Shown here: positions 6,402 to 55,719 of the stretch, in pieces
How positions within the stretch are numbered: position 1 is the stretch's first letter
How the letters are laid out: each line of letters starts with the position of its first letter
Virus record (IMG/VR): IMGVR_UViG_2799112265_000002
Span: 32,001-96,000 of that record
Source of the DNA: a virus
Lineage: Duplodnaviria > Caudoviricetes
Length of the DNA stretch: 64,000 nucleotides
Direction: 5' to 3' (one strand)
Program-made: the position numbers and the translations under genes
Notes under the pieces: model-generated
Told to the model about the DNA's origin: nothing
The model's input: the letters and a program-made list of their open reading frames with translations, nothing else
Database searches by the model: none

Positions 6402-6495
6402 CCACCACACCCCGAGGCCCACCACAAACCCCGAGATGGGAAGAACCTAACATGCCCAGCCGACTTAATATCAACGGCGGATTCGGAGCCGCCGA

Positions 6496-7500
6496 GTGAG
6501 CATCCTGATCATGTCCGAGGTGTTCACGCACTCGAACACCCGCCTCGCCACGCGGCTCGTTCTGCTCGCGCTGGCGGACGCGGCCAACGACACCCACCGG
6601 ATGTGCTGGGAGTCCGCCGACACCATCGCGGGCAAGGCCCGTGTGTCCAAGCGGCAGGCGTACGTGTCCCTGGCCGCGCTGGAGAAGGACGGCATCGTCG
6701 AGCACGTACCGGAGGACCAGATCCCACTGGAAGCGCTGCGGTACAAGTCCGTGGTCCGGCGCATCAAGCCGGTATCGGAATGGCCCGAGAGTGCAGATTC
6801 TGCACCCCCTGAAAGTGCAGATTCTGCACCCCCTGTGTCGAAGTTTTCACCCAACCCCAATAACCAACTAGAAGTTAGAGATATAGAAGAAACTTCGTTT
6901 CTTCCACCGCGCCGTTCGGCACGGTCTGATCCCGGCGAAGCCGAGGAGATACCTGCCAGGCCGGGCGGCAAGGGATGGGACGCGGTCCGCGCTCCGCGCC
7001 AGGGCGGCCGGAAGAAGACCAAGAAGCAGGCGGCCATCGAGGCGGCTCAGGCGGAACTGGAACTCGACCCGGCGTACGTCGTGGCCCAGGCCCTCGGCGA
7101 AGAAGATGCAGGAAGCGTCCAGGACGGCCGTCTCCCGGCCTCGGACGACGACCTGGCCCCTCCGGTCCGGCGACCTCGTGAGAAGCGCTCCCTGCGGCCT
7201 TCTGAGGTTCTGGCCTCGTTCTTCGAGAAGCGGGCCTTGGAGGTGGGTCACCCGGTTCCCGGCGCGGTCAACCTCGGAGCCCTCGCCGGGAACTTCGGCC
7301 GGTGGATGAAGGAGGGTGTCCGGTACGAGGAGATCACCAAGATGATCATCACCTATTGGTCCGTCTCCTGGAACCGGTCGGAGAACGTGCCGGCCTGGAA
7401 GGACTTCCTCGCCGCCCGCGGTCTGCTGACCGAGCGGCTGGGCAAGGCCGAGAACGCGATGGAGAAGCACCGGCACGACGAGGACTACTGGTCCATGTGA
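6496..7500 (+). CDS. Phage replication initiator (N-terminal wHTH, lambda O-like organisation)
   Basis: LVLLALADAAND...CWESADTIAGKARVSKRQAYVSLAALEKDG wHTH; internal iterons; upstream of DnaC/DnaB. Confidence 0.8.
   Translation: MSILIMSEVFTHSNTRLATRLVLLALADAANDTHRMCWESADTIAGKARVSKRQAYVSLAALEKDGIVEHVPEDQIPLEALRYKSVVRRIKPVSEWPESADSAPPESADSAPPVSKFSPNPNNQLEVRDIEETSFLPPRRSARSDPGEAEEIPARPGGKGWDAVRAPRQGGRKKTKKQAAIEAAQAELELDPAYVVAQALGEEDAGSVQDGRLPASDDDLAPPVRRPREKRSLRPSEVLASFFEKRALEVGHPVPGAVNLGALAGNFGRWMKEGVRYEEITKMIITYWSVSWNRSENVPAWKDFLAARGLLTERLGKAENAMEKHRHDEDYWSM
6787..6905. repeat. Putative replication origin: two 24-bp iterons plus AT-rich tract
   Basis: GARAGTGCAGATTCTGCACCCCCT at 6787 and 6811, each holding the palindrome GTGCAGA-T-TCTGCAC; AT-rich tract at 6841-6905. 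Confidence 0.7.
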
Positions 7501-7633
7501 CCGACCCGAAGGGGCGGGCTGCTACGGCGGTCCGCCCCTTCCCTGTTTGTAAAACGTTCAGCAAACACGTAATCGGTAAGGCGTAACTGTGGTAGCCTCC
7601 TGAGCGTTGAACCACCACCACAAGGAGGCCACC

Positions 7634-8290
7634 TTGGCGACAGACCCCCGGGTCCACGCCCTGCGGATGTCCGAGTACGGGATCCCGAAGCGGCTCCGCG
7701 GCCTGCGGCTTAATACCAGCGACGCACCCTGGAAGAGCGAGTGCCAGGAGTGGGTCGACAACCTGCGCGATCATTACGTCACCGACAAGCGGCCCCTGGA
7801 CCAGTACCCCGAGGACTGGAGCCAGATCGGCAAGGGCCTGCTGTTCCTGGGCCCTCCCGGCACCGGCAAGACCTCCCTGGCCACCGCCACGCTCCTGGAG
7901 TGCTACTTCGAGCAGCGCGTCCCGGTGTACTTCCTGGCCTACGCCGACTACGTCTCCATGTCGATCGAGCAGATGAGCCTGTCCGACCGCAAGGAGCCCG
8001 AGGCCATCGCCCGGTGGTGGCAGATCGAGGACGCCCTGAACTCCGCCCGCACGGCGCCCGTGCTGCTGCTCGACGACGTCGGCAAGGAGCACCGCACCAA
8101 GTCCGGCTACGCAGAGAACGAGCTGGACGTGCTGCTGCGCCTGCGGCACCGCGAGGGGCGCCCCACGCTCATCACCTCCAACGTCCCGCCGAAGGACTGG
8201 GGCGTGATCTACCACGAGTCCATGGGCTCCTTCATCCAGGAGTCCTTCCACATGATCAAGATGGTTGGGAGCGACCGCCGTGCAGCGTGA
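7634..8290 (+). CDS. dnaC: DnaC/IstB-like helicase loader AAA+ ATPase
   Basis: Walker A GPPGTGKT, Walker B LLLDDVG, PTLITSN; AAGGAGG RBS before TTG at 7634. Confidence 0.85.
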   Translation: MATDPRVHALRMSEYGIPKRLRGLRLNTSDAPWKSECQEWVDNLRDHYVTDKRPLDQYPEDWSQIGKGLLFLGPPGTGKTSLATATLLECYFEQRVPVYFLAYADYVSMSIEQMSLSDRKEPEAIARWWQIEDALNSARTAPVLLLDDVGKEHRTKSGYAENELDVLLRLRHREGRPTLITSNVPPKDWGVIYHESMGSFIQESFHMIKMVGSDRRAA

Positions 8291-8347
8291 ACTGTTGACT
8301 TCCCACAACGGGCTTAATACCCGGCTCCGCGAGGCGGAGCGCACCTG

Positions 8348-8803
8348 ATGGAACGGGGCGACATCTCCAACGAGGTCGTCCCCCGCCTGGTCATCGCGTT
8401 CGAGGGCATGCTCGGCGTCCTGCCGGAGAAGCCGGAGCGCGTGCACGAGCTGGTCGCCCGCAGGTTCGGGCGCCGGCAGCGCATGGCCAAGCGGACTGTG
8501 GACGCGTACGAGATCAACGACGCGCTGGCCCGGGTCATCTGGGACACCGTCTGGCGGTTCCGCTACTCGGTCGACGTCGTCACCTACCTCGGAGACGACG
8601 CTGTCGGGCCCCTGGAGGCCCGTCTGGACGCCGAAGGGCTTCCCATCGGCCGGGTGTGGGCCACGACCCCTGAGCGGCTGGCACGACGCCTGCCCTACAT
8701 GCCGGACGTCGCCGCGATCTTCGACAACGAACACCACCTGATCTACGGCAGCAAGGGCCGTTCCCTGCCCGCTGCCCCCACCACCCTCATAGGAGCGTTG
8801 TAG
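8348..8803 (+). CDS. Hypothetical protein, possible degenerate HAD fold
   Basis: Codon bias; VIAFEGML start resembles HAD motif I without the aspartates. Confidence 0.65.
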   Translation: MERGDISNEVVPRLVIAFEGMLGVLPEKPERVHELVARRFGRRQRMAKRTVDAYEINDALARVIWDTVWRFRYSVDVVTYLGDDAVGPLEARLDAEGLPIGRVWATTPERLARRLPYMPDVAAIFDNEHHLIYGSKGRSLPAAPTTLIGAL

Positions 8804-10068
8804 TGGCGGACTTCGAGCGCCTGCTCGTGTCCCGCGTCATCCAGGACAAGGACCTGGCCGACGTCGCGGACGCGGGCATCACCGCGGACTTCTTCGGCGA
8901 CCCCGACAACAAGGCCGTCTTCAAGGCCATCCTGCGACACAAGGCCACCTACGGCGAGGTCCCCAGCCTCGCCACCATCAAGACCGACTTCCCGACGTAC
9001 AAGTTCGTCAAGGTCGAGGACAGCATGCAGGTGCTGACCGACCGACTGCGCGAGCAGCACACCCTGGACCTGCTGGAGCAGGGCCTGGCCGACTCGGTCG
9101 ACGCACACGAAGAGGGCAACGCCAAGGCGGCCATGGAGGCGCTGGCACACACGCTGGCGTCCATCGCCTCGGCGGTGCCCAACTCCCGGGACACCGACCT
9201 GACGGAGACCGGGCAGGCACGGCTGGCCCGCTACCTCACGCTCAAGGACCTGCCCGACGGCCTGCGAGGTATCCCGACCGGCTTCCAGACCATCGACCGC
9301 GCCACCCAGGGCCTCCAGAAGGAGCAGTTGATCACCTTCGTCGGCCCTCCCAAGGCCGGTAAGTCCACGCTGCTCCTTCTGGCCGCCATGGCCGCGCACC
9401 TGTACGGCGTGAAGGTCCTGTTCATCGGCTTCGAAATGAGTAATGAGGAGCAGGAGGAACGTTTCGACGCCATCCGCGCGGGGATTTCCCACGCCCGGCT
9501 GAGGAACGGAACGCTCAAGAAGGCCGAGTGGGACAGGCTTGAAAGGGCCCTGCGGGAATTGGAGGCGATGCCCTCGTTCTTCCTGTCGTCGGACTCCATG
9601 AATGCGACGACGCTGACTGGTGTCGAGGCGAAGATTGACTCGCTGCGGCCCGAGGTCGTCATTATCGACGGCATCTACATGATGCAGGACGAACTCGGAG
9701 AGGCTCAGGGATCTCCGCAGGCGCTCACGAATCTCACCCGTGGGTTCAAGCGCATGGCGAAGAACCGGCAGTTGCCCATTCTCATCTCCACGCAGGTCCT
9801 CGAATGGAAGATGAACAAGAAGAAGGGGATCACCTCCGACTCTATCGGTTATTCGTCTTCCTTCGCCCAGGACTCCGACGTGATTCTCGGTGTCGAGTCC
9901 ACGGAGGACGCGAACATCAACAAGATCAAGGTGGTCCTGGCCCGTAACTGCCCGCCGCTGGAGACCTACTGCCAGTGGGACTGGGAGACCGGCAAGTTCG
10001 AGGAACTGAACGAGGACCCGTTCGCCATGGACGAGGTGAACACCGATGGATACGTCGGCGCCTTCTGA
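8803..10068 (+). CDS. dnaB: DnaB-like replicative helicase
   Basis: GIPTGF, GPPKAGKS, FEMS, IIDGIYMM, QDSDVIL motifs. Confidence 0.92.
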   Translation: MADFERLLVSRVIQDKDLADVADAGITADFFGDPDNKAVFKAILRHKATYGEVPSLATIKTDFPTYKFVKVEDSMQVLTDRLREQHTLDLLEQGLADSVDAHEEGNAKAAMEALAHTLASIASAVPNSRDTDLTETGQARLARYLTLKDLPDGLRGIPTGFQTIDRATQGLQKEQLITFVGPPKAGKSTLLLLAAMAAHLYGVKVLFIGFEMSNEEQEERFDAIRAGISHARLRNGTLKKAEWDRLERALRELEAMPSFFLSSDSMNATTLTGVEAKIDSLRPEVVIIDGIYMMQDELGEAQGSPQALTNLTRGFKRMAKNRQLPILISTQVLEWKMNKKKGITSDSIGYSSSFAQDSDVILGVESTEDANINKIKVVLARNCPPLETYCQWDWETGKFEELNEDPFAMDEVNTDGYVGAF

Positions 10069-10345
10069 GCCCCGCCTGGTGGTCCTCGCCGGGAACTTCC
10101 GGGAGTTCCTGTTCTGGTGCCGGGAGAACAAACGAAACCCCCGTGACCGGAACCTTATCTACGCCAGCGAAATGCACCGCCTGCAAGGCCTCGGCCCTAT
10201 CAGGTGGATCTCATACGGCACCGCCTATATGCGCCGCGACTACTGGGAAATGCGCCAGTACCTGAACTACCTGGAGAGGAGATACCAGTGCCCCGAGCAA
10301 AAGCCGGATGGGACGCAATCGGAAACCCCATCCCTGGAAACGTGA
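10046..10345 (+). CDS. Hypothetical protein
   Basis: Protein-like ORF filling the gap between helicase and primase. Confidence 0.55.
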   Translation: MDTSAPSEPRLVVLAGNFREFLFWCRENKRNPRDRNLIYASEMHRLQGLGPIRWISYGTAYMRRDYWEMRQYLNYLERRYQCPEQKPDGTQSETPSLET

Positions 10346-11250
10346 CCGCGTGCCTGGACACCCTGGAACTCGACTACAAGGTCCAGGGCGACGAAATACA
10401 CATGCCGTGCCCCATGCATGAGGCGCGCACCGGAAAGAAAGACGCACACCCATCCTTTTCCATAAACTTCGACGAAGGGTATTTCAACTGCTTCTCCTGC
10501 GGATACCGCGGGGCCTTCTGGGTCCTCGTCCGCGACGTCCTGGACCTGGACGCGAGCGAGGCCAAGAACTGGGTCAGGAAGCGGGGCGGAGCGGAGCGCG
10601 TCCGGAAGTACCTGGAGAAGAAGAAGCAGCGCGCTGAGCAGGTCGACACGACCAAGCAGATCAACGAGGCGTCGCTGGCCCTGTACACCACGCCGCCGCT
10701 GAGCGCCTGCGCCGAGCGGTTCTTCCTGCCGGAGGACGCCGAGACGTGCGGGGTGCTGTGGGATCCGGCCCGGGACATGTGGATCATCCCGGTCCGCGAC
10801 CCCGACACCGGGATGCTGTGGGGCTGGCAGGAGAAGAACGAGCGGTACTTCCGCAACCGGCCGCCGGGCATGGCGAAGTCCAAGACGCTCTTCGGCTTGC
10901 ACACCTACGACGACGACGTGGCCGTGCTGGTCGAGTCGCCGCTGGACGTGGTCCGGCTGTGGACGTGCGGGATCCGCGGGGGCTTGGCTTCCTACGGCGC
11001 CGGAGTCTCCGACGCGCAGATGTCCCTGATCCGCGACCACTTCGACACCGTCATCGTCGCCCTCGACAACGACGACGCCGGAGCGAAGGCCTGCCAGCGC
11101 CTGAAGGACGAGTGGACCGGCCGCGGCCTGACCCTCAAGTTCCTCGACTACTCCGTGGCCCCGCACGCCAAGGACCCCGGAGACATGAACGCCGACCAGA
11201 TCAAGGCCGCCGTCCGCGGCGCCTACTCATCCATCCTCGCCCGTTTCTAG
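10288..11250 (+). CDS. DNA primase (CHC2 zinc finger + TOPRIM)
   Basis: CPMH...CFSC zinc finger; VESPLD and LDNDDAG TOPRIM motifs; AGGAG RBS. Confidence 0.9.
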   Translation: MPRAKAGWDAIGNPIPGNVTACLDTLELDYKVQGDEIHMPCPMHEARTGKKDAHPSFSINFDEGYFNCFSCGYRGAFWVLVRDVLDLDASEAKNWVRKRGGAERVRKYLEKKKQRAEQVDTTKQINEASLALYTTPPLSACAERFFLPEDAETCGVLWDPARDMWIIPVRDPDTGMLWGWQEKNERYFRNRPPGMAKSKTLFGLHTYDDDVAVLVESPLDVVRLWTCGIRGGLASYGAGVSDAQMSLIRDHFDTVIVALDNDDAGAKACQRLKDEWTGRGLTLKFLDYSVAPHAKDPGDMNADQIKAAVRGAYSSILARF

Positions 11251-11297
11251 GAGCACACCGTGACGCTTAATACCTGCCCCCGCGAGGGGGACCCCCG

Positions 11298-11594
11298 ATG
11301 AAGGCACCCGAGGGCTACGAGCACCTGGGCCAGGAGTTCTGGGACCGCGTCGAGCCGGACCCGGACACCGACTGCCTGATCTACCAGTCCACCGCCACGC
11401 GGCCTTACTACCAGGGCAAGTCCCTGCTGACCTTCCTCACTGGAGGGGATGGCAGTCAGAAGCACAGGGCCTGCCGGCGTCGCATGTGTGCCAACCCTGA
11501 CCACATCCAGTCAGGGCACTTCAACCCCGGCACCCCGTTCGCCAAGAGGCCGCGGACCCGGGGACAGTTCAACCGGCAGTACAGCCAGTGCTAG
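11298..11594 (+). CDS. HNH-like protein (possibly degenerate)
   Basis: DCLIY...HRACRRRMCANPDHI resembles the HNH_3 zinc loop. Confidence 0.55.
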   Translation: MKAPEGYEHLGQEFWDRVEPDPDTDCLIYQSTATRPYYQGKSLLTFLTGGDGSQKHRACRRRMCANPDHIQSGHFNPGTPFAKRPRTRGQFNRQYSQC

Positions 11595-13231
11595 CCGTCG
11601 ACTTGCACGCGTACCAGGAGGAGGCGGTAGACCGCGCCGTCGAGCGCGGCTCCCTCCTGATCGCCTACGAGATGGGCCTGGGCAAGACCGTCATCGCCCT
11701 GGCCGCCATCGAGGAGCTGCTGGAGAAGGGGGAGGTGGAGACCGCGGTCATCGTGGTGCCGGCGAACCTCAAGTACCAGTGGGCCAAGTCCATCGCCCGC
11801 CTCACCGACGTGCCGACCCGTACGGTCACGGTGCGCGAGGACGGGCTGAAGCAGGAGATCACCGTCCCCACGGAGGAGTACTGCGTCCTGATCGACGGCG
11901 ACGCGAAGAAGCGCGCCGGGCTGTACGCCAAGGTCAAGACGCTCCGGCCGGAGTACGTGATCCTCGGCTACGAGAACGTCGTCAACGACTGGAACTACGT
12001 GAGGAGGATCAAGCCGGAGTGCATCGTCCTCGACGAGTGCACGGCCATCAAGACCTTCCGGGCCCAGCGCACGCGGAAGATCAAGAGGCTCACCGCGCCG
12101 TACCGCTTCGGCATGACCGGCACCCCGGTGGAGAACGGGAAGCCCGAGGAGCTGTTCTCGATCATGCAGTGGGTCGACGACCAGGTCCTCGGCCGCTTCG
12201 ACCTGTTCGACAAGTCGTTCATCGTGAGGAACCGCTTCGGTGGTGTCCAGCAGTACAAGAACTTGCCGGTCCTGCACGCCAAGCTGGCCGAGGTGATGGT
12301 CAGGAAGACGCGCCTGGACGACGATGTGCGGCCGTACCTGCCCGAGGTACAGGAGTCCATCATCCCGGTCGTGCTGGACCCCAAGACGAAGAAGGCCTAC
12401 AAGGCCATCTCCGCGGACCTGCTCGCCGAGCTGCGGGCGCTCGGGCCCAACACAGGCAACTTCGACTTGTTCGCCCACTACCACGGAGGAGACACCCCGA
12501 ACGAGAACAGTCAGCAGGGCAAGATCATGTCTCGCATGCAGGCCCTGGACATGCTGCTGAACCACCCGGACCTGATCGTCATGTCCGGGCAGCAGTATGA
12601 GGAGAGCCAGGAGGCACGCTCACGCGGCGCCGAGAAGAAGACCTGGCCCGGCTCGAAGTACGCCTACGAGGTGTGGCAGTCCGGCCTGCTCGACGAGGTC
12701 ACCACGTCCCCGAAACTGGACGCCGTGGCGGCAGCGATCGAGGACATCCTGGCGGTGCCCGGCAACAAGGTGATCGTCTTCAGCGTCAACCCTGACATGC
12801 TCGACCTGATCGGGGACAGGCTGCCGGCGGGATCCTTCGTCACCTACACCGGCCGGATGTCCTCCGCGGCCAAGGCCTACGCCGCCCAGCGATTCGAGGC
12901 TGACCCGGACTGCCGGGTGTTCCTGTCCAGTCACGCGGGCGCCTTCGGCACCGACCTGTACATGGCCAACTACCTGATCAACTACGACCTCGCCTGGAGC
13001 GCGGGTAAGCAGGACCAGATCAACGCCCGGCACAACCGGGCCAGCAGTCAGTTCCGGGACATCTACATCCTGAACGCCATCACCCAGGGGACCACCGAGC
13101 CGCGCAAGCTGTCGATGCTGGCGCACAAGCGGCGGGTCGGCTCGGCCATCACGGACGGGCGCGGGGCGGATGAGAAGGGGCGCATCGAGAACGACGTGCA
13201 GACGCTGACTCAGTGCCTGGACGCGGCGTAA
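11588..13231 (+). CDS. SNF2-family helicase
   Basis: MGLGKT, LDECT, MTGTPVEN, QINARHNR motifs. Confidence 0.9.
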   Translation: MLAVDLHAYQEEAVDRAVERGSLLIAYEMGLGKTVIALAAIEELLEKGEVETAVIVVPANLKYQWAKSIARLTDVPTRTVTVREDGLKQEITVPTEEYCVLIDGDAKKRAGLYAKVKTLRPEYVILGYENVVNDWNYVRRIKPECIVLDECTAIKTFRAQRTRKIKRLTAPYRFGMTGTPVENGKPEELFSIMQWVDDQVLGRFDLFDKSFIVRNRFGGVQQYKNLPVLHAKLAEVMVRKTRLDDDVRPYLPEVQESIIPVVLDPKTKKAYKAISADLLAELRALGPNTGNFDLFAHYHGGDTPNENSQQGKIMSRMQALDMLLNHPDLIVMSGQQYEESQEARSRGAEKKTWPGSKYAYEVWQSGLLDEVTTSPKLDAVAAAIEDILAVPGNKVIVFSVNPDMLDLIGDRLPAGSFVTYTGRMSSAAKAYAAQRFEADPDCRVFLSSHAGAFGTDLYMANYLINYDLAWSAGKQDQINARHNRASSQFRDIYILNAITQGTTEPRKLSMLAHKRRVGSAITDGRGADEKGRIENDVQTLTQCLDAA

Positions 13232-13438
13232 CTTCCAGGATCCCATGCAGGACGTCGAGTGGTTGTAAAGGGTTTCCCGCGTGTCACTATCAAAGCATGC
13301 GAGAAGACCCACTCGACGTCCTGCTCCGTGAGGGGCTGGAGGACGTCATGCACCCCCCGGAGGAGCAGGAGGACTGGGACCTGACCCCCGTCCGCCTGGC
13401 TCGTCGCGGTGCCGTCGCCGACCGCTGGTGAACGATGT

Positions 13439-13489
13439 AAAGCGGTTTCCGTAGATCCGTTGACAAGGGCATATGCCTCTCCGTAGAGT
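13439..13489 (+). promoter_or_regulatory. Promoter cassette
   Basis: AAAGCGGTTT at 13439; TTGACA(13460)-18nt-TAGAGT. Confidence 0.75.
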
Positions 13490-13547
13490 CGACCTCACCA
13501 AGCAGGAACCGAACAGAGGATCGAATCGCTACGCAGGGGAGACGCAA

Positions 13548-13895
13548 GTGACCACCATCGCTGAAGCACTCGGCATCGACTGGACCGCCCGCCTCTCGGA
13601 CGAGTCCCCCGAGTACCGCCTGACCCACCACGCGCAGAAGCAGGCGCAGGCCAAGGGCTGGACGTCCCAGCAGGTCCTGGACGCCGCCAACCGCCCGCAC
13701 CACACGTACCCCTCCGGCCGCGTACCTGGCCAGTACCGCCACGTGAAGGGCGACATCGTCGCCATCGTGGACCCCGTACAGCACCGCGTCGTCACCGTCT
13801 ACCAGGACGTCGAGGAGACCGACCTCCGTCCGGACCAGACCGACCGGGACGCGCAGACCTACGCCAAGCGCCACGCCTCCCTCGGCTGCAAGTAA
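13548..13895 (+). CDS. DUF4258-like (RelE-fold) protein
   Basis: YRLTHHAQKQAQAKGW...VVTVY pattern; has its own promoter and a GGAG RBS. Confidence 0.6.
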   Translation: MTTIAEALGIDWTARLSDESPEYRLTHHAQKQAQAKGWTSQQVLDAANRPHHTYPSGRVPGQYRHVKGDIVAIVDPVQHRVVTVYQDVEETDLRPDQTDRDAQTYAKRHASLGCK

Positions 13896-13919
13896 CACCT
13901 TCGAAACGCGTAATCGATA

Positions 13920-13949: not shown

Positions 13950-13995
13950 CGTATCTGCTCAACCGACCTACTACGTAGAAAGAGAGCCCCGCTCT

Positions 13996-47759: not shown

Positions 47760-47768
47760 CCTGGCAGG

Positions 47769-48218: not shown

Positions 48219-48268
48219 AAAGCGATTTCCTGAGTACGCTTGACAACACGTAATGCGCCCTGGATAGT
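48219..48268 (+). promoter_or_regulatory. Promoter cassette
   Basis: AAAGCGATTT; TTGACA(48240)-17nt-GATAGT. Confidence 0.7.
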
Positions 48269-48320
48269 CGGCCTTCCGCTCGACGCACACGGCGCCGAGC
48301 ACACGGAAGGAACGCACGAC

Positions 48321-49496
48321 ATGAGCGCCAAGACGATCACCCGCCCCCAGGCCCTGGCCCTGCGCAACGCGGACGAGCTGCCGGAAGAGCTGCTGCGCCC
48401 CGTGGACGCACTGCGCGGCCTGCGCGTCGTGGACGCCCGCCCCAACACCTGCGCCGCCCTGGTCCGCCTGGGCCTGGCCGAGGAGATCGAGGGTCAGCAC
48501 GTACTCACCCGCGCCGGGGAGAACGTCCGGGCCATCACGGAGCTGGACTACCTCCCGCGCCTTGACCTGATCGCCGCCATGGTCGCCGCCGAAGCTGAGG
48601 AAGCCGCGTTGGCTGCTGAGCAGGAAAAGCACCGCCCGGAGGATGGCACCTACTACCCGGCCGAGGAAGGCGCCAAGACCTGGCGCGCGGCCTGCCCGAT
48701 GTACCGCGACGGGCGCCGCGTCTCCGCCGTGGTGGAGAACGGCGGCCAGGACCTTTACGTCTACGTGGGCGGAGAGATCATCTACGACGGCGACATGCCC
48801 GCCTTCGTCAAGACCTCCGGCGACGTGATCCCGTTCGTGCGTCAGTACGCGGAGGGTTGGGCCCTGGCCCGCGAATACCGCACCCTGTGGAGCTACCGTG
48901 ACCACGCCGGGCGCGTCTGGGGCCCGTACGCCGATGCCGAGTTTGCCCACACCGACGGTTCCGCCGAACGGTACTGCCGGGGCATCGTCGACACGACCGG
49001 CGCCGGTGAAGTGATCCGCATTGACCGCCGCCCGGAGCACTTCGAGACGACCGGCCGCAACTGGACCGACACGCGCACCGTCGTGCACGTGGCTGGCGCC
49101 CCGGCCGAGGCCGCGTGGAACGCCGCCTTTGAAAAGGGCCGTGCCCTCGGTAAGGACTACGCCGCAGCGCACGACTACGCCGACGAGGTCATTCGCAACG
49201 CGCGCATTCGCGCCGAGGCCGCCCCCGCGCCCGTCTCGGTCTACGTCACCACCGCGGACGCCGAGCGCATCGAATACGCGCACGTCCCCAACGGTGACCC
49301 CTCCCGCGTCGCTCACTTCCTGGACGCTGCCCGCGCCGTGCCCACTTACCGGGACGCCAGCACGGACCAGGTGAGCCGCTGTGAGCGCGTCGAGTGCGAG
49401 GAGCGCCCCCGCTTCATCGGGACCGCGTACGGCCGCCCTGAGCGCCTGTGCAGCTTCCACAGCTACGCCACCCAGGGCCGCCGCCCCATCGCCTAG
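48321..49496 (+). CDS. Hypothetical multidomain protein
   Basis: GGAAGG RBS before ATG 48321; the TTG start in the ORF track is the -35 box. Confidence 0.75.
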   Translation: MSAKTITRPQALALRNADELPEELLRPVDALRGLRVVDARPNTCAALVRLGLAEEIEGQHVLTRAGENVRAITELDYLPRLDLIAAMVAAEAEEAALAAEQEKHRPEDGTYYPAEEGAKTWRAACPMYRDGRRVSAVVENGGQDLYVYVGGEIIYDGDMPAFVKTSGDVIPFVRQYAEGWALAREYRTLWSYRDHAGRVWGPYADAEFAHTDGSAERYCRGIVDTTGAGEVIRIDRRPEHFETTGRNWTDTRTVVHVAGAPAEAAWNAAFEKGRALGKDYAAAHDYADEVIRNARIRAEAAPAPVSVYVTTADAERIEYAHVPNGDPSRVAHFLDAARAVPTYRDASTDQVSRCERVECEERPRFIGTAYGRPERLCSFHSYATQGRRPIA

Positions 49497-49558
49497 CCAC
49501 CCCTCAGCACCACACCCCACACCACCACCAACCCACCCCCAAACCAGGGAGTTTCGAA

Positions 49559-50305
49559 ATGCGTACTGCCAACATCCCCGCCCTGTCCGTCTCGCCGGTC
49601 GCCTCCGTCGTCGAGGGGGCCCGTCGGTTCGCCGCCCGTAACGGCCTGCCGACCCGTGACCACTGGGACTACTCCCGCGTAGTGGTGACCCCGGACGCCG
49701 TCGCCAAGATCGGCGCGGCTTACATGGAACTGCCGTTCATCGACAACGGCGCCCCGGCCGCCTGGAAGGCCATGCGCGAAGAGGTGATGCGACAGCTTGA
49801 GTTCGTCACCGCCCCCGCGTCGCGCGGCGGTCTCGGCATCACGGTGAGCGTTGAGGACGCCGACCCGTACGACGTCACCCAGCCGGGCGGCACCCGCGCT
49901 TTCTTCGATGACGTCGCCAACGGCCGCATGCGCGTTCTGTCCACCGCCGTCACCGGCTCGCACTTCTTCTTCAGTGACGACGAAAACGACGCCTTCCGCG
50001 CGGTGCACGACATCTTCGGCCACTGCGGCACCGGGCGCGGTGTCGACCGCCACGGGGAAGAGGCCGCGTACCGCAAGCACGCGCTTATGTTCTCGCCCCT
50101 CGCCCGTAAGGCGCTGGCCACCGAAACCCGTGGACAGAATCACGCGATGATCGCCAACGGCGGTGAATTCCAGGCGCAGAAGGTCGCCATCCTGCCGAAG
50201 TGGGCGCGCGACTTCGAAGCGGTCCGCCCGGCGTCCATGGCCGACTACCGCGCCGCCCTGAAGCAGGCCGCCAAGATGCACGCCTCCCAGGGCCTCGCCG
50301 GCTGA
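49559..50305 (+). CDS. Conserved phage protein with FRAVHDxFGH...GEE...TETRGQN (zincin-like) motif
   Basis: Motifs visible in the translation; GGGAG RBS. Confidence 0.75.
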   Translation: MRTANIPALSVSPVASVVEGARRFAARNGLPTRDHWDYSRVVVTPDAVAKIGAAYMELPFIDNGAPAAWKAMREEVMRQLEFVTAPASRGGLGITVSVEDADPYDVTQPGGTRAFFDDVANGRMRVLSTAVTGSHFFFSDDENDAFRAVHDIFGHCGTGRGVDRHGEEAAYRKHALMFSPLARKALATETRGQNHAMIANGGEFQAQKVAILPKWARDFEAVRPASMADYRAALKQAAKMHASQGLAG

Positions 50306-50398
50306 GACGCCGTCAGACACACCCCCCACGGGCCCGGGGGAGCGACCCCCGGGCCCTACACCACCCAACCAACCGCCCCACGCCAGGGAGCCCCGTTC

Positions 50399-51034
50399 AT
50401 GATCCCCTGCAAGCCTTCCGACTCCACCCGTCGCCGCTACGTCGCCAACATCGTTTCCGTGTTCAACCGCGCCACCGATGACCAAAAGCAGCGCGGCGCC
50501 AATTGGTATGTCACCGCTCACGAACTCGCCGAATTCCTCTCCGAGGGAAACACGCGCGCGGGAGCGGGAGTGATCGCCGCACTGAGCGCCAATAAGGCAT
50601 GGGACATAAACCAGCGCCTTGCCCGCGACGCATTCGCCGGTAACCCCCACGGCCACACCGGGGACAACCTGGCCAAGGTCGCAAAGATCCTGTCCGGCAC
50701 CGACCCGGCGGAGGTCCTGCCGATGGATGCCAAGACCGGGAATTTTTACCGCTGCATTCTCGACCCGTCCGACGCCGAAGCCGTCTGCATCGACCGCCAC
50801 GCGCACGATGTCGCCGTGGGCAGCCCCTGGGGTGACCGTGACCGGGGACTGGGCAGCAAGGGCCGTTACGCCGTTCTGTCGCTCGCCTACCGCAACGCAG
50901 CCGCCCGGCTGGAGGTGCTGCCGTCCGTCGTCCAGGCCACGACGTGGGTTGTCTGGACTGAGTCTCTCGCCGGAGTGAAGCGGCGCCCGGTGGTGGAGCG
51001 CTACGCCCACCAGACCGACGACCGCGACGCCTGA
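50399..51034 (+). CDS. HhH-glycosylase-like (DUF7178-type) phage protein
   Basis: WY, AGVIAALS, KTGNFY..ILDP, VCIDRHA, QATTW. Confidence 0.7.
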   Translation: MIPCKPSDSTRRRYVANIVSVFNRATDDQKQRGANWYVTAHELAEFLSEGNTRAGAGVIAALSANKAWDINQRLARDAFAGNPHGHTGDNLAKVAKILSGTDPAEVLPMDAKTGNFYRCILDPSDAEAVCIDRHAHDVAVGSPWGDRDRGLGSKGRYAVLSLAYRNAAARLEVLPSVVQATTWVVWTESLAGVKRRPVVERYAHQTDDRDA

Positions 51035-51067
51035 CCGACCCCCACCCAACGACAGGAGACACAGACC

Positions 51068-51190
51068 ATGATCCGCACCGCCCGCGCCACCGTCCGCGCC
51101 TACCGCGCCCAGCGCGCCCGCTTCGCCGACCCGGCGCGCGTCAGCACCGGCCGCGCTGGCGCCGCGTTCCTCCGGACGTCCGGCCGCTAG
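51068..51190 (+). CDS. Small Arg/Ala-rich protein
   Basis: AGGAG RBS; followed by a hairpin. Confidence 0.5.
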   Translation: MIRTARATVRAYRAQRARFADPARVSTGRAGAAFLRTSGR

Positions 51191-51794
51191 ACACAGCAGC
51201 CCCACGAACGCCCCTCGCCGCCCTTCTCCGGGCCGGTGGGGGGCTTTCTGCTGTCCTGGTTCAGTGAGGGGTAAGACGGACCCAGAGAGGCCCGCTGGTG
51301 GCTTCCCAGGGCCGCCCCGCCTCCACGGCCGCCCGTCCCTCCGTGGTCATGCGCGCGTCTAGCTCCCCACACGACCGCTTGAGCACCGCCCCCCGCCACG
51401 CTGGCGACAGGTGGGCCAGGGAGCGGCGGCAGGAGGAGCGCAGCGCGCCTAGAGCCCCGTCCACATCCCCTAGGTCACTGCTGTAAGCCAGCCCGGCCCA
51501 GTCCGACCCCCACGACATCGCGAGCCCCATACGGCCACCCTGCGCCCCCTCGTCCAGGGCCGCCAATTCGGGGCCAGGGGGAGCGCACCACCGCGGCCGC
51601 ACAAGAGGCGTACGTCATCCCCCACGCCAGTACGTCAACGGCTTAACGTACGGCCGCCCGTGGTCCAGGTCGCCGACGACGTCCACGCAATCCGGGGCCA
51701 GGGGAAGGCTCCCCCACTGCTGACCACTCCCAGGGACACAGCACCACCACACACACGGCCATGCGGTCGCCAGTCAAAGCCGCGTAACTCGCCA

Positions 51795-52128
51795 TTTGCT
51801 GAGTTGCTACAGCGTGTTTGCTCACCCTGGTATCTCGGGGCCTATTTGCAGCTTTGCAATTCCCCGAATCTCGGCAGTGGCCTGTTTGCATTTTGTCGAT
51901 TTAGGGGGCTGATATTTGCAGCGCTCGGGGGTTGACAGGCCGGCGACGACGTGCTTAGCGGCCATGTGTGGCGCAGCTCACGCCCTGGGGAAGGGTGCAG
52001 ATACCGCACGGAAGCGCGAGGCTTGGAATTCGTCGGCTCAGGGGGTTGACAAGCCGGCTGTCAATATGATCCAAGGAATTTGCAGAATTTGCCCCCCCTA
52101 CCCTTAAGCAAACATTTGCGAAAGCAAA
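51795..52128. repeat. Non-coding TTTGC/GCAAA repeat cluster
   Basis: TTTGC at 51795, 51817, 51845, 51853, 51885, 51915, 52079, 52088, 52115; GCAAA at 52108, 52124. Confidence 0.7.
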
Positions 52129-52157
52129 GGGCCTAGACAGCCGCGCAGCGCGACGAG

Positions 52158-52655
52158 TTGCAGATGGGGACAGTGACACAGTGGCGGGAACTCGGGGATT
52201 TGGGGGTTATCAAGCGGCTGTCACTGAAGACTACGCTGGCTGGTCCGCGAGCGGGAGCAGGTGAGGGCGTGTCGAAGGCAGTGCACTTCGGGGAAGAGGC
52301 CGGCGCACCAGACAGCATCTGGGGGACGTACTGGTTCCGGCGGTCGCTCGCGCCCAGGTTGCGGGAGACGGGGGACAGGGACCTCGAACACCTGGCGTCG
52401 TGGCTGGAGCGAGACGGGGAATTGGGTGAGCGAGCGGACGGGAACTTCCTGGTTCCTGAACTGCTGTGGCCGGCTGACCCGGATGACGAGGAGTACGCGG
52501 AGTGGTCGGCCGGCCGGGACCGGCTGGCGCGCATCGCTGATGCAGTCGAGCGACTGGTCGGAGATGCAGAACTGGACGACCCTCGGATGGTCGAGCTGGT
52601 CGACGGGCTGAAGTGGTCTGCGGAGCGGTGCACCAGTCCGTGGATTGGGTGGTAG
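52158..52655 (+). CDS. Hypothetical protein (start uncertain)
   Basis: Acidic protein-like ORF. Confidence 0.5.
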   Translation: MQMGTVTQWRELGDLGVIKRLSLKTTLAGPRAGAGEGVSKAVHFGEEAGAPDSIWGTYWFRRSLAPRLRETGDRDLEHLASWLERDGELGERADGNFLVPELLWPADPDDEEYAEWSAGRDRLARIADAVERLVGDAELDDPRMVELVDGLKWSAERCTSPWIGW

Positions 52656-52754
52656 CGCTAGGTCGCCGAGGTCGAGGCCGGCGAGCTGACCAGGGAGGTT
52701 GTGCAACTGAGTGACTACCGATAACGTCGGTGATCCAATGAGAGGGGGCCGTCG

Positions 52755-53300
52755 ATGGTGGTGGGACCGCAGATTACAGCCGAAGAGGCGGAGGCAGACC
52801 TGCGCGCTGCGGGGTACGAGCCGCTGGAGCCGTACCCGATGCACGTCCGGGAGTTGTGGAAGGTGCGCTGCTCGACCTGCGGGTACGAGTGGACGCTCAA
52901 CCTGAACAAGGTGCGGACGGGGCAGCGTTGCAACCACGTGCGGACGACGCCGAAGGCTGCCGTCGAGGAGCTGCTGGCCCTGGGTTTCGAGCCTTTGGAG
53001 GAGTACCCGGGCAGGCGTGATACGCCGTGGCTGATGCGCTGCGTCGAGTGCAAGAAGCCGCGACGTGTCCGGCTGGCGAACGTGAAGGGCCGGGGCCCCT
53101 GCTCGTGTGTGGAGAAGCGCAAGCAGGCGGAGGCGGAGCTGCGCGCGGCCGGCTATGAGCCGCTGGACCCGTTCCCGGGGATGGTCCGTAAGCCGTGGCG
53201 CTCGCGGTGCGTCGAGTGCGGGTCGGAGCGCCGGCCGAGCATCGACACCCTGCGGCAGGGGCGCGGGCGCTGCAAGCACATGGACAGCCGGCTGCGGTAG
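52755..53300 (+). CDS. Triple zinc-ribbon repeat protein
   Basis: Three ~60-aa repeats: LRAAGYEPLEPYP...W..RCxxC...C. Confidence 0.75.
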   Translation: MVVGPQITAEEAEADLRAAGYEPLEPYPMHVRELWKVRCSTCGYEWTLNLNKVRTGQRCNHVRTTPKAAVEELLALGFEPLEEYPGRRDTPWLMRCVECKKPRRVRLANVKGRGPCSCVEKRKQAEAELRAAGYEPLDPFPGMVRKPWRSRCVECGSERRPSIDTLRQGRGRCKHMDSRLR

Positions 53301-53308
53301 TTCGGGGG

Positions 53309-53497
53309 CTACGTGCGGGGTTCGAGGAAGACGCCGTAGGGACGCTCCTCGTATATGGACTTGCCGTACCTGCGGAGCGTGCCGTGCACGACGACGTCGT
53401 AGCCCATGCGGCGGGCGGTCGCCACGTACTTACGGGACTCGCGGACGGCGTCGGCCTTGGTGCCACGCCACAACAAAGCGTCGGACAGGTTGCGCAT
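53309..53497 (-). CDS. Small hypothetical protein, probably leaderless
   Basis: Minus-strand TTGCCC-18nt-TACTGT ends 7 nt before the ATG. Confidence 0.55.
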   Translation of the reverse strand: MRNLSDALLWRGTKADAVRESRKYVATARRMGYDVVVHGTLRRYGKSIYEERPYGVFLEPRT

Positions 53498-53536
53498 GGT
53501 TCGTACAGTAAGCGGAGCCGGTGGTTCCGGGCAACG

Positions 53537-53586
53537 AAAGCGGTTCGCGTGAATCGCTAGACAACAGGGGTACGAACCCGTAGTGT
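53537..53586 (+). promoter_or_regulatory. Promoter cassette
   Basis: AAAGCGGTTC; TAGACA(53558)-17nt-TAGTGT. Confidence 0.7.
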
Positions 53587-53619
53587 TAACGCGTAATTGA
53601 GAACGGCGTAGGAGGAGTT

Positions 53620-53787
53620 GTGGCGAAGTACGTGGTGTTCCTGCACGGTCACGCCAGCGCGCGGGTCGAGGTCGAGGCCGGCGACTTGCAGGAGGCGAAC
53701 CGCAAGGCGGTCGAGGTCGCCCCCAGGACGAAGTACGTCAGGAGCTGGACGCCGGTCATGGGCAGCAAGATCGAGGGGGGAAAGTGA
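53620..53787 (+). CDS. Hypothetical protein (55 aa)
   Basis: AGGAGGAG RBS; starts MAKYVVFLHG. Confidence 0.65.
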   Translation: MAKYVVFLHGHASARVEVEAGDLQEANRKAVEVAPRTKYVRSWTPVMGSKIEGGK

Positions 53788-54038
53788 GCGAGCAGGTCGA
53801 CTACCGCGAGATCGAGGACAAGGTGCTGCGCCGGGCGTGGAAGGCGCGCACGTTCCGCGACTACTACGGCGCGGTCGGGGCGGAGGCCCGGCGGTTCCCG
53901 CCGCGGACGTTGGACGTGTCGGTGACCGGCCGGATGGTGGTGACGCCCCCGCCGCTGCGTACGGTGCCGCGCGAGGACGGCAAGAAGACGCTGGCCGACC
54001 TGGTCGAGCTGTTGATCGAGAAGGGACAGGCGAAGTGA
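53784..54038 (+). CDS. Hypothetical protein
   Basis: GTGA overlaps. Confidence 0.65.
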   Translation: MSEQVDYREIEDKVLRRAWKARTFRDYYGAVGAEARRFPPRTLDVSVTGRMVVTPPPLRTVPREDGKKTLADLVELLIEKGQAK

Positions 54039-54265
54039 CGGATTCGGGGCAGGCGCGGAGCGCCGTACACCTGGGTGAGGGTGCGTACAAGACGCTGACG
54101 CTGCTGGAGACGACCGGGCCGGCGCCGCTGACGGCCACGCACAAGCGGAGCATGACGCTGCTGGCGTGGCTGGTCGAGCAGGAGCTGGTCGGGCTCCGCG
54201 GTCAGCTCATGGACCTGACGGACAAGGGTCGCGAGGCTTTGGGGCAGGCGCGGAGCGCCGAGTAG
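54035..54265 (+). CDS. Small wHTH-like protein
   Basis: LVEQELV...LTDKGRE pattern. Confidence 0.6.
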   Translation: MTDSGQARSAVHLGEGAYKTLTLLETTGPAPLTATHKRSMTLLAWLVEQELVGLRGQLMDLTDKGREALGQARSAE

Positions 54266-54312
54266 GCCCACCGGCCCAATTTCGAGCATTTAACTACGGC
54301 GGGGAGGATTTG

Positions 54313-54819
54313 ATGATGGCTGAAGAGATGACGACGAACCGGGCCGAGGCGATCGAGCGGGCGAAGAAGCACCCGGCCGGCATGTTCGTCAACGTGCACC
54401 GACGGGTGCTTCAGGCGATGGAGATGCTGGGGCTGGCGGAGCTGGCGGCCGACGGGGAGTTCTACCTGACCGACAAGGGGCGGGGCGAGAGCAAGCCGGA
54501 GGAGTCGAAGGTCGAGGAGCCGGCCGAGAACGCCACGGTCCGGATGCTGAAGGAGGAGTTCGACGCCATCTCCGACAACACTCCGGTCGGTATGGAGCGC
54601 GTCAACGCCACCGTCAGGGGGATGCTCCGCCAGAAGTACGCGGAAGGTGCGGCCTGGGCGATCCAGGAGCTGCGTGCCAGCGCCGCCGCGGCGCAGCGGT
54701 CCTACGAGAGCACGCAGGAGAAGGACTACAAGCGCATGGAGGAGACGCTGCGCACGGCTGCGAACGTGCTGGCGATGGACCTTCGTAAGCGCCTGATCGA
54801 CGACAGGGAAGAGGTCTGA
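54313..54819 (+). CDS. Hypothetical protein
   Basis: GGAGG RBS; YLTDKGR motif. Confidence 0.7.
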   Translation: MMAEEMTTNRAEAIERAKKHPAGMFVNVHRRVLQAMEMLGLAELAADGEFYLTDKGRGESKPEESKVEEPAENATVRMLKEEFDAISDNTPVGMERVNATVRGMLRQKYAEGAAWAIQELRASAAAAQRSYESTQEKDYKRMEETLRTAANVLAMDLRKRLIDDREEV

Positions 54820-55021
54820 GATGCGTATCGGTACGCGAATCGGGCCGGTCGGTGTGGGGTTCAGTACTCGGCGGAGGCGTAGGAGGAAGGGGACCGGGCC
54901 GCTGGGCACCGTGGTCTTCCTGCTCATGGTCGGGTACCTGATCTATTGGAACCACTGACGTACGCCCGCGGAGGGCCCCTGCCTGGGAGACCGGGTGGGG
55001 GCCCTTTGTGTTACGCGTTTT

Positions 55022-55071
55022 AAAGTGGTCTGTCGAAACCGCTTGACGGTACCTAGTTGCTCGGATAGATT
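55022..55071 (+). promoter_or_regulatory. Promoter cassette
   Basis: AAAGTGGTCT; TTGACG(55043)-17nt-TAGATT. Confidence 0.7.
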
Positions 55072-55131
55072 CCTCTTACTGCTTCGGAAGACGTAAGTAC
55101 GAAGCCGTAACAGGAAGCGTGAGGGGTTCGT

Positions 55132-55395
55132 GTGAGCCAGCAGCAGAAGGCACCGCTCCCGGTCGGAGCGCGCATCGCCTACATGCCGGACGGGTACAGC
55201 CTGGTGCCGGCCGTCGTGGTCGCGATCGAGCGGACCAACTCCGGGAGCTGGCGCGGGGACATCCGCACGCAGGACGGCCTGCTGGAGAACCGCTCGCTGA
55301 ACCCGGAGTACTTCATCCGGCAGCAGCACCTCCAGCAGGTGAACCGGACGGCCTGGGCGAACATCTGGGACGAGCTGGCGGCGGAGGGCAAGTGA
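55132..55395 (+). CDS. Hypothetical protein
   Basis: GAGG RBS; downstream of a promoter. Confidence 0.65.
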   Translation: MSQQQKAPLPVGARIAYMPDGYSLVPAVVVAIERTNSGSWRGDIRTQDGLLENRSLNPEYFIRQQHLQQVNRTAWANIWDELAAEGK

Positions 55396-55719
55396 TGCAC
55401 GAGAACCCCACGGATGCCTGGGCGCACCAGGAAGGCCCGCTCGAACTGGGTGAGCTGGGTGCCGGCATCGGTATCGACCCGAGCCTGTGCGGAGACGGCT
55501 TCCCCCGCGAGGAGTGCCCCAACGGCGCCAAGTGCGCCGACAAGGGCTAGCTCAGTCTCCGGTCCGGTCCGTCGACAGCGAAGGAGTCGGCGGGCCGGGC
55601 CGGTCCTACCACCTGGAGATTGGCGTGAGACGCCTTAATACCTAGTCCGGGTATTCGGGTGCCCGGCGGGCGGCGTCCCACCGGGCACCTGTCCCACCAC
55701 CGAGAGGTGCAACTCTCCG

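Follow-up and report, generated by a model that had tools for sequence, protein, structure and literature searches.

Short oriented motifs dispersed along phage genomes, such as nick sites, stoperators and start-associated sequences, are known and are mostly poorly understood. The DNA uptake sequences of Haemophilus and Neisseria and the start-associated sequences of Cluster K phages are likewise short, oriented, genome-wide motifs with a frame preference or a start-adjacent position, and stoperators lie mostly in short intergenic spaces. The repressors of Cluster A phages bind 20-30 asymmetric sites of 13-14 bp that are oriented with transcription (PMC6550527), stoperator motifs in this cluster are lineage-specific (PMC6550527, PMC9283540), and phage tf carries TACTRTGMC sites on one strand only, at positions common to its relatives, with a main site one base different from that of PaP3/LUZ24, a difference that its authors read as co-evolution of nickase and site (PMC3517423). 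Here we describe a dispersed motif, CTTAATA(CC), in a phage represented by a window of 64,000 nucleotides (nt), which comprises bases 32,001-96,000 of the 105,651-bp record IMGVR_UViG_2799112265_000002, classed as a provirus in IMG/VR. Four copies of the motif lie outside annotated coding sequences, and our analysis indicates that these copies are not intergenic but sit in short reading frames that have been kept by selection. These minigenes are the boundary case of a composite element that recurs genome-wide and consists of CTTAATA(CC) followed by a 3' hairpin.

All four copies, as the initial annotation had proposed, can be read in the L-N-T/I frame of a tiny open reading frame (ORF) on the + strand. 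Minigene A (6452..6499; MPSRLNINGGFGAAE*, ATG CCC AGC CGA CTT AAT ATC ... GAG TGA) carries the copy CTTAATATC (Leu-Asn-Ile) at 6464..6472 and lies upstream of the replication initiator (6496..7500, +; HTH_36, PHROG 'replication initiation O-like'), to which it is coupled by the annotated GTGA overlap between its stop codon (TGA, 6497-6499) and the initiator's GTG at 6496. Minigene B (...LLTSHNGLNTRLREAERT*; TTG...CTT AAT ACC...ACC TGA) holds CTTAATACC at 8313..8321 and overlaps a 151-amino-acid (aa) gene without assigned function (8348..8803, +) as TGATG at 8346-8350; the overlap stands as annotated and the TTG start (8295..8348) is possible, but GTG 8280, in frame behind GGGAG, is the better start candidate (8280..8348). 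Minigene C (11260..11301; VTLNTCPREGDPR*) holds CTTAATACC at 11266..11274 and has both the AGGAG (11249-11253) and the ATGA overlap (11298-11301) ascribed to it, although its start is GTG and not ATG. GTG is also the start of minigene D (55625..55645; GTG AGA CGC CTT AAT ACC TAG), a 6-codon ORF that ends in CTTAATACC-TAG and has the expected GGAG at 55615-55618. In each of minigenes A to C, the distance from motif base 1 to the start of the TGA is exactly 33 nt.

These features were compared with those of relatives obtained from a DnaB scan that returned 43 loci, of which 31-33 have an orthologous copy at each minigene site. The tally covers 15-23 haplotypes and two motif clades, one using CTTAATA and one using CTTCATA, whose loci are 83-87% and 74-79% identical in DNA to the window, respectively. 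An in-frame ATG precedes the Leu codon of minigene A by 3-4 codons in 33/33 loci (19 haplotypes, both motif types), and the stop/start overlap is kept in 33/33 (GTGA in 29, ATGA in 3 and TTGA in 1). Motif and stop are 11, 9 or 8 codons apart, with length changes that are always whole codons, and the peptide varies freely among relatives (MSSRLNINGGFGAAE, MAVSLHTYRFLGAAE, MPLPLHTYRLGRAGN). Minigene A is a conserved upstream ORF. At minigene B an in-frame start is present in all 33 loci (ATG in 11) and TGATG is kept in every one of them. The open frame around site 8313 exceeds 60 codons, with the same TGATG end, in 28 of these loci, where the motif lies in the tail of a longer ORF (...WYEDGRLNIQLRAEAERT*), and has 60 codons or fewer in the other 5; the 6-nt indels of two loci (L037 and L048) stay in frame. 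Minigene B is the retained 3' tail of a gene of about 78 codons that relatives still have. Minigene C has an in-frame start in 31/31 loci (ATG in 30) and a stop/start overlap in 21/31, and in 11 of the 31 the motif is near the head of a longer ORF, 58-61 codons from its stop; minigene C represents the truncated head of a small ORF (about 65 codons in these 11 relatives). The sequence CTTMATACC-TAG of minigene D is kept in the genomes G001, G003 and G004, where it forms MKTIRLHT*, MYGRLHT* or the last codons of a 58-85-aa ORF.

Outside L-N/H-T the minigene peptides are not conserved, while start codons, frame and stop/start overlaps are. Since starts, frames and overlaps are conserved in relatives, the minigenes are real, selected reading frames, and the conservation by which the initial annotation had proposed to check them is borne out. 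Its alternative suggestion, eroded gene starts, is partly right as well: the minigene at 8313 is what remains of a gene's 3' end, the one at 11266 corresponds to an ORF head in 11 of 31 loci, and a leader of this kind is fused to RecA in this genome. More generally, minigenes and the N- or C-terminal extensions of adjacent genes can take each other's place.

The possibility that the minigenes are chance open frames around intergenic copies was weighed using rates measured over 15,447 intergenic positions of four genomes. At 65% G+C, an in-frame ATG, GTG or TTG before a stop is found at 0.41 of these positions (0.16 for ATG), so that location in a tiny ORF is not in itself beyond chance, the more so with four cases only. 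A stop overlapping the next start has a rate of 0.073, and start and overlap together have a rate of 0.036, whereas this coupled arrangement is seen in 3 of the 4 intergenic copies (P ~2e-4; binomial, post hoc). In addition, starts, frame and overlaps are kept in 31-33 loci per site, across 15-23 haplotypes and two clades, the more distant one at 74-79% nucleotide identity. Chance open frames are thus an exceedingly improbable account of the minigenes, and pure chance as an explanation is excluded.

The minigene copies belong to a much larger set. CTTAATA occurs 29 times in the window (4402..60914), always on the + strand and always reading Leu-Asn-Thr/Ile/Met, against 0.35 copies expected (none of 100 shuffles reaches 29). 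The full record contains 41 copies, 40 on the + strand and 1 on the - strand, all of them sense and in the L-N-T/I/M frame; as 9-mers they comprise CTTAATACC (38 copies), CTTAATATC (2) and CTTAATATG (1), and only 3 one-mismatch variants exist on the + strand of this genome. The density is about one copy per 2.6 kb. The only real copy on the - strand is read in frame 0 of an ORF on that strand, which lies upstream of the serine-integrase gene; this copy is kept, with the A/C switch between motif types, in G000, G001 and G004. Motif orientation follows transcription, although strand and sense are nearly confounded because all but a few genes are on the + strand. Within genes, 11 of 36 copies fall in the first 21 codons (about 3.4 expected), 4 of them at codon 3. 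Six copies precede a start codon by 20-35 nt. Two blocks lack the motif, namely 10.7 kb of tail-fibre genes and 15.3 kb of small genes (window 40.33-55.63 kb). The latter block, whose genes have no assigned function, opens behind a terminator-like hairpin and a TTGAC-type promoter-like sequence at about 40.62-40.75 kb and closes at the strong hairpin 55658-55689 described below. In flanking loci of CTTCATA-type relatives, TTGACAA, ACTACTA and AGTTCTA are repeated on one strand and may be early promoters.

The motif is a property of the phage. A related phage is found as a prophage of about 95 kb in a 10.7-Mb Streptomyces genome, and about 40 of the 72 CTTMATAYC copies of that genome lie in the prophage in one orientation, while the remaining 10.6 Mb of the chromosome hold about 30 copies on both strands, which makes the motif about 130 times denser in the prophage. 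A host-wide motif (Chi, KOPS, uptake sequences) was rejected since there is no over-representation in the host chromosome. An antisense guide RNA was also considered and rejected, the complement GGTATTAAG or GGTATGAAG being present only at the one - strand copy.

The reading frame of the motif is as constant as its orientation. All genic sense copies are in frame 0, in this genome (36/36, by our uncurated codon log-odds gene calls) as well as in its relatives (34/34, 35/35 and 41/41). No bona fide copy is untranslated in four complete genomes, because the copy at 40326 and the contig-end copy of the relatives lie in conserved ORFs; the former is in frame 0 of a small ORF of about 130 aa with a hydrophobic N-terminus (40224..40607, +), which is conserved in four genomes with indels of 9 or 12 nt. 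Within long genes the frame of CTTAATA is forced, as had been noted at the outset: TTA is used once and ATA 40 times in the genome, and a TAA falls in the third frame. None of the three frames of CTTCATA contains a stop, and still its sense genic copies are only in frame 0. Codon cost does not explain this well for the CTTCATA clade, as the codons that the other frames would need (ATA, 32-44 uses; TCA, 37-50) are about as rare as CAT outside the motif (40-46 uses; 1.3-1.5/1000). The earlier suggestion that the site may need to be translated gains partial support from the lack of bona fide copies outside the sense frame and from the conserved minigenes, a ribosome-level mechanism being one possible cause.

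The codons themselves point to selection at the nucleotide level. Almost all L-N-T tripeptides of this genome (34/36) are written CTTAATAC (CTT AAT AC), and outside the motif CTT and AAT are rare (83 and 80 uses; AAT 2.6/1000). L-N-[TIM] is observed 42 times in this genome and 11.0 times expected; CTTCATA genomes have 39-47 L-H-[TIM] tripeptides, of which about 7 are expected and 34-41 are in motif form. At lineage-specific sites the other genomes have the same or a similar tripeptide in GC-rich codons, for example CTTAATACC versus CTGAACACC and CTTCATACC versus TTGCACACC. These codon comparisons show that the element is selected as a nucleotide sequence.

Leaders similar to the minigenes are also fused to ordinary genes. 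The recA-like gene (21567..22850, +) begins with the codons MPLNTCAGGP, a leader that is fused in frame to RecA in this genome (MPLNTCAGGP-DKEAL), whereas in G001, G003 and G004, which are of the CTTCATA type, separate mini-ORFs such as MRLHTYGGPC* and MTLHTCGGCP* precede recA and end on its start. The ThyX gene of this genome has no alternative start downstream of its motif. The over-representation of L-N-T/L-H-T by a factor of 4-6, together with the motif-carrying N-terminal leaders, shows that the phage has reshaped dozens of its proteins for the sake of a nucleic-acid signal. In a separate observation, ThyX and a 150-aa protein have almost the same N-terminal leader (ATGTCGCTTAATACC...CCGGCGGCCGTC; MSLNT..APAAV; window 25559-25600 and 57035-57076), the ThyX of G004 has no leader, and CTTCATACCTACGGGGGC is common to two gene heads in CTTCATA-type genomes. 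It seems that a leader with motif and hairpin can be acquired, lost or duplicated as a whole.

The two motif types are mutually exclusive. The 41 loci with a DnaB identity above 85% (86-96%) contain CTTAATA or CTTCATA, never both and never on the - strand, and the five complete CTTCATA genomes have 34-47 sense and 1-3 antisense copies. Stray copies of the other type are single and confined to a few flanking loci and one prophage. In this CTTCATA-type Streptomyces prophage (G006:C18:136147), a lone CTTAATACC stands 21 nt before CTTCATACC, at a locus occupied in the present genome by a pair of CTTAATACC copies (window 31013 and 31037, 24 nt apart); the stray copy may have been left over from the other motif type or belong to a small recombinant patch. 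Over four genomes the sites form 71 clusters, of which 18 are present in all four and 47 in at least two, and shared sites differ only at base 4. As the sister clade has CTTCATA(CC) in the corresponding positions, the element is likely to be read by a lineage-specific trans factor.

A more distant relative, G007, which has a TGT-like protein of 52% identity, contains 46 in-frame copies of CTT-CTA against 1.84 expected, whereas the other frames are at chance (nCT-TCT-Ann, 1 against 2.18; nnC-TTC-TAn, 18 against 12.67). This enrichment would lend independent support to frame-specific selection. In its 100-kb record (loci L144-L148), NNT-CTA-G occurs 64 times against 9.9 expected, and a tmRNA and 17 tRNAs, including Leu-UAG, are encoded. 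No analogous motif could be accepted for BRock in the 42 kb read, the only candidate, GTAGAG (25 against 8), being an ordinary Val-Glu codon pair.

The second part of the composite element is the hairpin 3' of the motif. The minimum free energy of a 30-nt segment starting at +6 averages -9.7 kcal/mol (baseline -6.2), and in dinucleotide shuffles the region +7..+46 scores z of -1.0 to -1.2 (p 2e-5 to 1e-4), with values of about 0 for upstream sequence and for +60. The stem starts -2 to +5 nt after the 7-mer at 32 of 39 sites. At minigene A the predicted hairpin GGCGG-attcggag-CCGCC (6476..6493, +; z -0.31 alone) holds the initiator's GGAG (6485-6488) in its loop, and CTTCATA-type relatives have a different stem, CTCGG/CCGAG, at this site. 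The hairpin of minigene B, GCTCCGC-gag-GCGGAGC (8324..8340, +; z -1.96 for 8295-8362), has the next gene's GGAG in its 3' arm; among relatives its stem is invariant and its loop variable. At minigene C the 3' arm of CCCCC-gcga-GGGGG (11277..11290, +; z -0.29 alone) is the purine-rich ribosome-binding stretch of gene 11298, and relatives keep the stem with loops GCAA, GCCA or ACAGC. Minigene D is followed by the strong hairpin GGTGCCCGG...CCGGGCACC (55658..55689, +; -37.6 kcal/mol, z -2.79), which, from its predicted fold, resembles a terminator that closes the motif-free block.

We tentatively favour the reading that the element acts on the transcript in its translated register, as a programmed pause or a factor-binding site; RNA-level action and a role of the ribosome are what we infer from the features above. 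The element would be recognized by the lineage-specific trans factor, and it occurs solely in the form of the sense codons CUU-AAU/CAU-ACC. When CUU occupies the P site and the rare NAU codon the A site, the stem would begin 8-12 nt downstream and the helix would meet the mRNA entrance of the ribosome, whose entry channel lies about 8-12 nt downstream of the P site. The result would be a pause, or the binding of a factor, during translation of middle and late messages. A slow codon in the A site after CUU is a classical shift- and pause-prone arrangement (PMC5009743), and the codons that follow CUU here are the rare AAT and CAT described above. In minigenes A to C, where the stop lies on the next gene's start, the hairpin that begins 3-4 nt after the 7-mer (2-3 nt after the 9-mer) holds the purines of the next gene's ribosome-binding site (RBS), so that translation of the minigene should open the next start, that is, translational coupling.

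A more specific version, which we regard as doubtful, is that the signal is decoded by the ribosome and consists of in-frame CUU, one rare codon (AAU, CAU, perhaps CUA) and an mRNA helix, with about 40 such signals per genome gating or pacing the middle and late proteins and the codon being set by a phage-borne tRNA or tRNA-modification system. Hints of such a system are the tRNA-Asn that these phages carry, the tRNA-His of 4/6 CTTCATA genomes and the TGT-fold enzyme present in all, the classical TGT substrates being tRNAs that read NAU/NAC codons, including AAU and CAU. tRNA-His is present in 4/6 CTTCATA-type and 0/1 CTTAATA-type genomes, a number too small for a test of co-variation, and the link of the TGT enzyme and the tRNAs to the motif is suggestive only. 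The tRNAs of the phage itself are Pro-TGG, Phe-GAA, Leu-CAA and Asn-GTT (window 63732-63884; genome 96732-96959), and G001, G002, G004 and the G006 prophage encode a tRNA-His-GTG of 86 nt that is missing from G003, G005 and this genome. In the window, Rfam and ARAGORN detected only tRNA-Pro and tRNA-Phe, at 63.7-63.9 kb, and no motif copy lies within a known RNA.

The candidate enzyme is a 512-aa protein of the TGT/DpdA superfamily (38527..40062, +; gene 38527..40065), assigned by PHROG and fold searches as a putative nucleic-acid base-exchange enzyme. It matches PHROG 887, 'queuine tRNA-ribosyltransferase' (E 9.7e-79), and has no sequence match in Pfam or the PDB. The AF2 model of its N-domain (predicted local distance difference test, pLDDT, about 90) has a TIM-barrel fold; the top Foldseek hit is TGT (1q2r, E 3e-6), and Cap10 and DpdA (7ui4) are also found. 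D57-S58-G59 and Y61 are invariant, a pattern that we take to resemble the D-S-G-G-Y motif of TGT, and a four-Cys cluster is present. More than 640 homologues occur in actinophage contigs of about 100 kb, and no preQ0 synthesis genes were seen in the phage. Against a link to the motif stand the BRock-type phages, which have a TGT-like gene (46-49% identity) without the motif (CTTAATA, 0 copies in the whole BRock record; CTTCATA, 1 copy in the 42 kb read), and G007, whose second codon is CUA. Distant loci with a TGT-like gene (L118 and L125-L141) contain other one-strand motifs: L118 has ACCTAATC in pairs 24 nt apart in apparently non-coding DNA, and in phages of 39-40% G+C, GGCGGTG and GTAGCCG occur 5-7 times on one strand and 0 times on the other.

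Several observations weigh against action on the transcript in its translated register. The frame exclusivity of the CTTCATA clade can largely be inherited, given the number of site clusters shared by two or more (47/71) or all four genomes (18/71), and other-frame peptides able to host the 9-mer are few (0-1 for F-I-P and 0-4 for [APST]-S-Y-C.. per genome); a DNA-level signal that had to fit three codons would look similar. The hairpins are weak when sites are folded singly (z of -1.9 or lower in only 2/7), and those of young lineage-specific sites are no better than the motif-free orthologous positions (-11.6 versus -10.3, p 0.23). Sense and antisense folds are equally stable, with 16 G-T versus 14 A-C mismatches in stems, and because these measures do not discriminate, the helix could be a DNA feature. 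The element of G007 has no hairpin (z -0.03) and shares 0/10 alignable sites with this genome, and may for these reasons be a different thing. The +1 frame after the motif is unmarked: a search for a product or stop there gave a median length of 43-48 codons (28-33 in controls) and no early stops. Among DNA nick sites, there is a documented case in which a 9-mer confined to one strand has switched one base in concert (PMC3517423). Finally, ends of BLAST alignments within 25 nt of the motif number 19, 15, 19 and 11 in G000, G001, G003 and G004, about 4.2-4.6 being expected (2.4-4.5-fold). Relative to boundary-matched controls, this excess holds for boundary sites in all four genomes and is clear for in-gene sites only in G000 (4/22 versus 3%). 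It would fit a recombinogenic site at the DNA level; the sites may lie either in variable protein segments or at recombination junctions.

A DNA-level site, in which the 9-mer is read by a phage enzyme or DNA-binding protein (a nickase, the TGT/DpdA-like enzyme or a stoperator-type repressor), is possible though somewhat unlikely. Since nine bases are exactly three codons, the frame would then be only the cheapest way to write the 9-mer into proteins, and the minigenes would be leftovers of genes in which copies arose, as those at 8313 and 11266 demonstrably are gene remnants. Such a site would suit a temperate phage with two integrases, a relative of which is a Streptomyces prophage, and which encodes two HNH endonucleases in addition to the TGT/DpdA-fold protein; the one-base switch of nick sites, the oriented repressor sites of Cluster A, the alignment ends near the motif, including those at in-gene sites of G000, and the absence of an RNA-specific G-U excess in the stems all lean the same way. 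However, both clades retain the ATG of minigene A and its stop/start overlap (33/33 loci), which indicates selection on translation and not decay, and in G007 only the in-frame hexamer is enriched. The lone - strand copy follows its gene and not the DNA strand, and the 3' hairpin is not predicted by stoperator or nick-site models. A guanine-exchange enzyme would find no G on the motif strand, as CTTMATAYC lacks it, the possible targets being the guanines opposite C1, C8 and C9; in the BRock-type phages the TGT-like gene comes without CTTMATA enrichment and, in the 42 kb read, without a convincing analogue. The excess of alignment ends, moreover, may only reflect variable protein segments. Co-variation of repressor and motif proved uninformative as a criterion: the sole divergently transcribed helix-turn-helix (HTH) protein, a - strand XRE protein, has a nearly identical HTH in both motif types, and no repressor could be linked to the motif.

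An RNA or transcription element that is independent of the ribosome, that is, a middle/late promoter-like site or a processing or stabilizer site, is unlikely. The single-stranded 9-mer would be bound or cut by a phage factor, the hairpin would shield the new 5' end, and frame 0 would follow from coding cost and descent. The co-orientation with transcription, the hairpin directly 3' of the motif, the six copies shortly before a start codon and the lack of copies in the 15.3-kb block behind a terminator-like hairpin and promoter-like sequence are all in keeping with it, and one copy per 2.6 kb is about the density of phage-specific promoters in T7 and T4. On the other hand, where the motif occupies codon 3 (M-x-L-N-T, four copies), the message would be cut or begun within the very gene that the motif heads, ThyX lacking a downstream start, and no phage RNA polymerase, sigma factor or endoribonuclease was recognized in the Pfam and PHROGs searches. 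Contigs from RNA libraries of relatives also run across 6464 and 11266, which is a weak argument because these are contigs only and DNA carry-over is possible. Public sequencing runs other than one 8-Mb assembly reach at most 12% of words and consist of contigs only, from which starts, ends and depth are unreadable.

The genome in which the element occurs is that of a temperate phage, as its two integrases (serine and tyrosine) imply. The window has a G+C content of 65%, and nearly all genes are on the + strand according to uncurated codon log-odds calls. Pfam and PHROGs identify structural genes (contractile tail and baseplate, terminase, portal), a replication module (O-like initiator, DnaC-like loader, DnaB, DnaG-type primase, SNF2 helicase and PolA) and further genes (RNR, RecA, ThyX, dNMP kinase, RNA ligase, PNKP, RlaP, Lsr2 and SpoVS), as well as the two HNH endonucleases. 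An RNA-repair-like module at window 57487-61445 comprises an RlaP nucleotidyltransferase, a T4 Rnl1-type RNA ligase and a PNKP kinase-phosphatase, with one motif copy in each of the ligase and PNKP genes. A megablast search of GenBank phages with 6 kb gave no match, and the nearest named relatives are the BRock-type Streptomyces phages, with a PolA identity of 52-53%. The records of G001, G003 and G004 end in 'direct terminal repeats' of exactly 126-127 bp, which, being the size of an assembler k-mer overlap, may mark circular assemblies and not true phage ends. Among the papers listed by searches of the open literature, none describes such a motif, the listed matches to the motif string being unrelated primers.

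The signature is unusually clean: the roughly 40 copies include no degenerate one and are invariably read as three sense codons, a hairpin follows on the 3' side, and the sister clade has switched one base at every site. Were the signal read by the ribosome, it would represent a novel type of translational control acting across a whole genome; were it a nick or repressor site, no earlier system of that sort would have been seen locked to a reading frame, and such systems would now extend to large temperate Streptomyces phages. In both cases the natural A/C 'alleles' and the conserved minigenes are ready-made experiments.

In comparison with known systems, the element resembles nick sites (tf/LUZ24-like, phiKMV-like, T5) in its 9-nt asymmetric consensus, its one copy per 2-3 kb and its positions common to relatives. 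In both cases the site sequence co-varies between related phages by a concerted one-base difference, TACTGTGAC in tf versus TACTATGAC in PaP3/LUZ24 according to the tf account (PMC3517423), and CTTAATA versus CTTCATA, exclusive in 41 loci and at orthologous positions, here. Unlike the tf sites, which are all on one strand despite two convergent transcription units, the - strand copy here follows its gene; the tf report, in which the word 'hairpin' does not appear, mentions no frame rule or minigene (PMC3517423). The stoperators of Cluster A phages such as L5 and Bxb1, which are also temperate actinophages, are similarly 20-30 dispersed asymmetric sites oriented with transcription (PMC6550527), but have 13-14 bp, whereas the present sites have 9 bp, lie inside the sense frame and are followed by a hairpin. 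Minigenes A to C share with coupled leader ORFs the ATGA, GTGA and TGATG overlaps, a conserved start, a variable peptide and RBS purines in a predicted stem, and they differ from classical leaders, which have regulatory codon runs or arrest peptides, in that only the 9-nt element is conserved and also occurs about 37 times far within ordinary genes or at their ends. The +1 shift sites (prfB CUU_UGA_C; Ty1 CUU_AGG_C) likewise have CUU before a rare, presumably slow codon (AAU or CAU here; CUA in G007), and a nearby stimulatory structure is a known theme at CUU-based shift sites (PMC5009743). Here, in contrast, there is no +1-frame ORF or stop pattern, and shifting itself is not proposed, since efficient shifting would be lethal with about 40 sites in essential genes. 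DNA uptake sequences differ in being host-wide, where the present motif is concentrated in the prophage, and in Cluster K the start-associated sequences are located before the start codons and contain the RBS, while the element described here is translated. Compared with all of these, the element is a new, frame-locked variant of the dispersed oriented motifs of phages.

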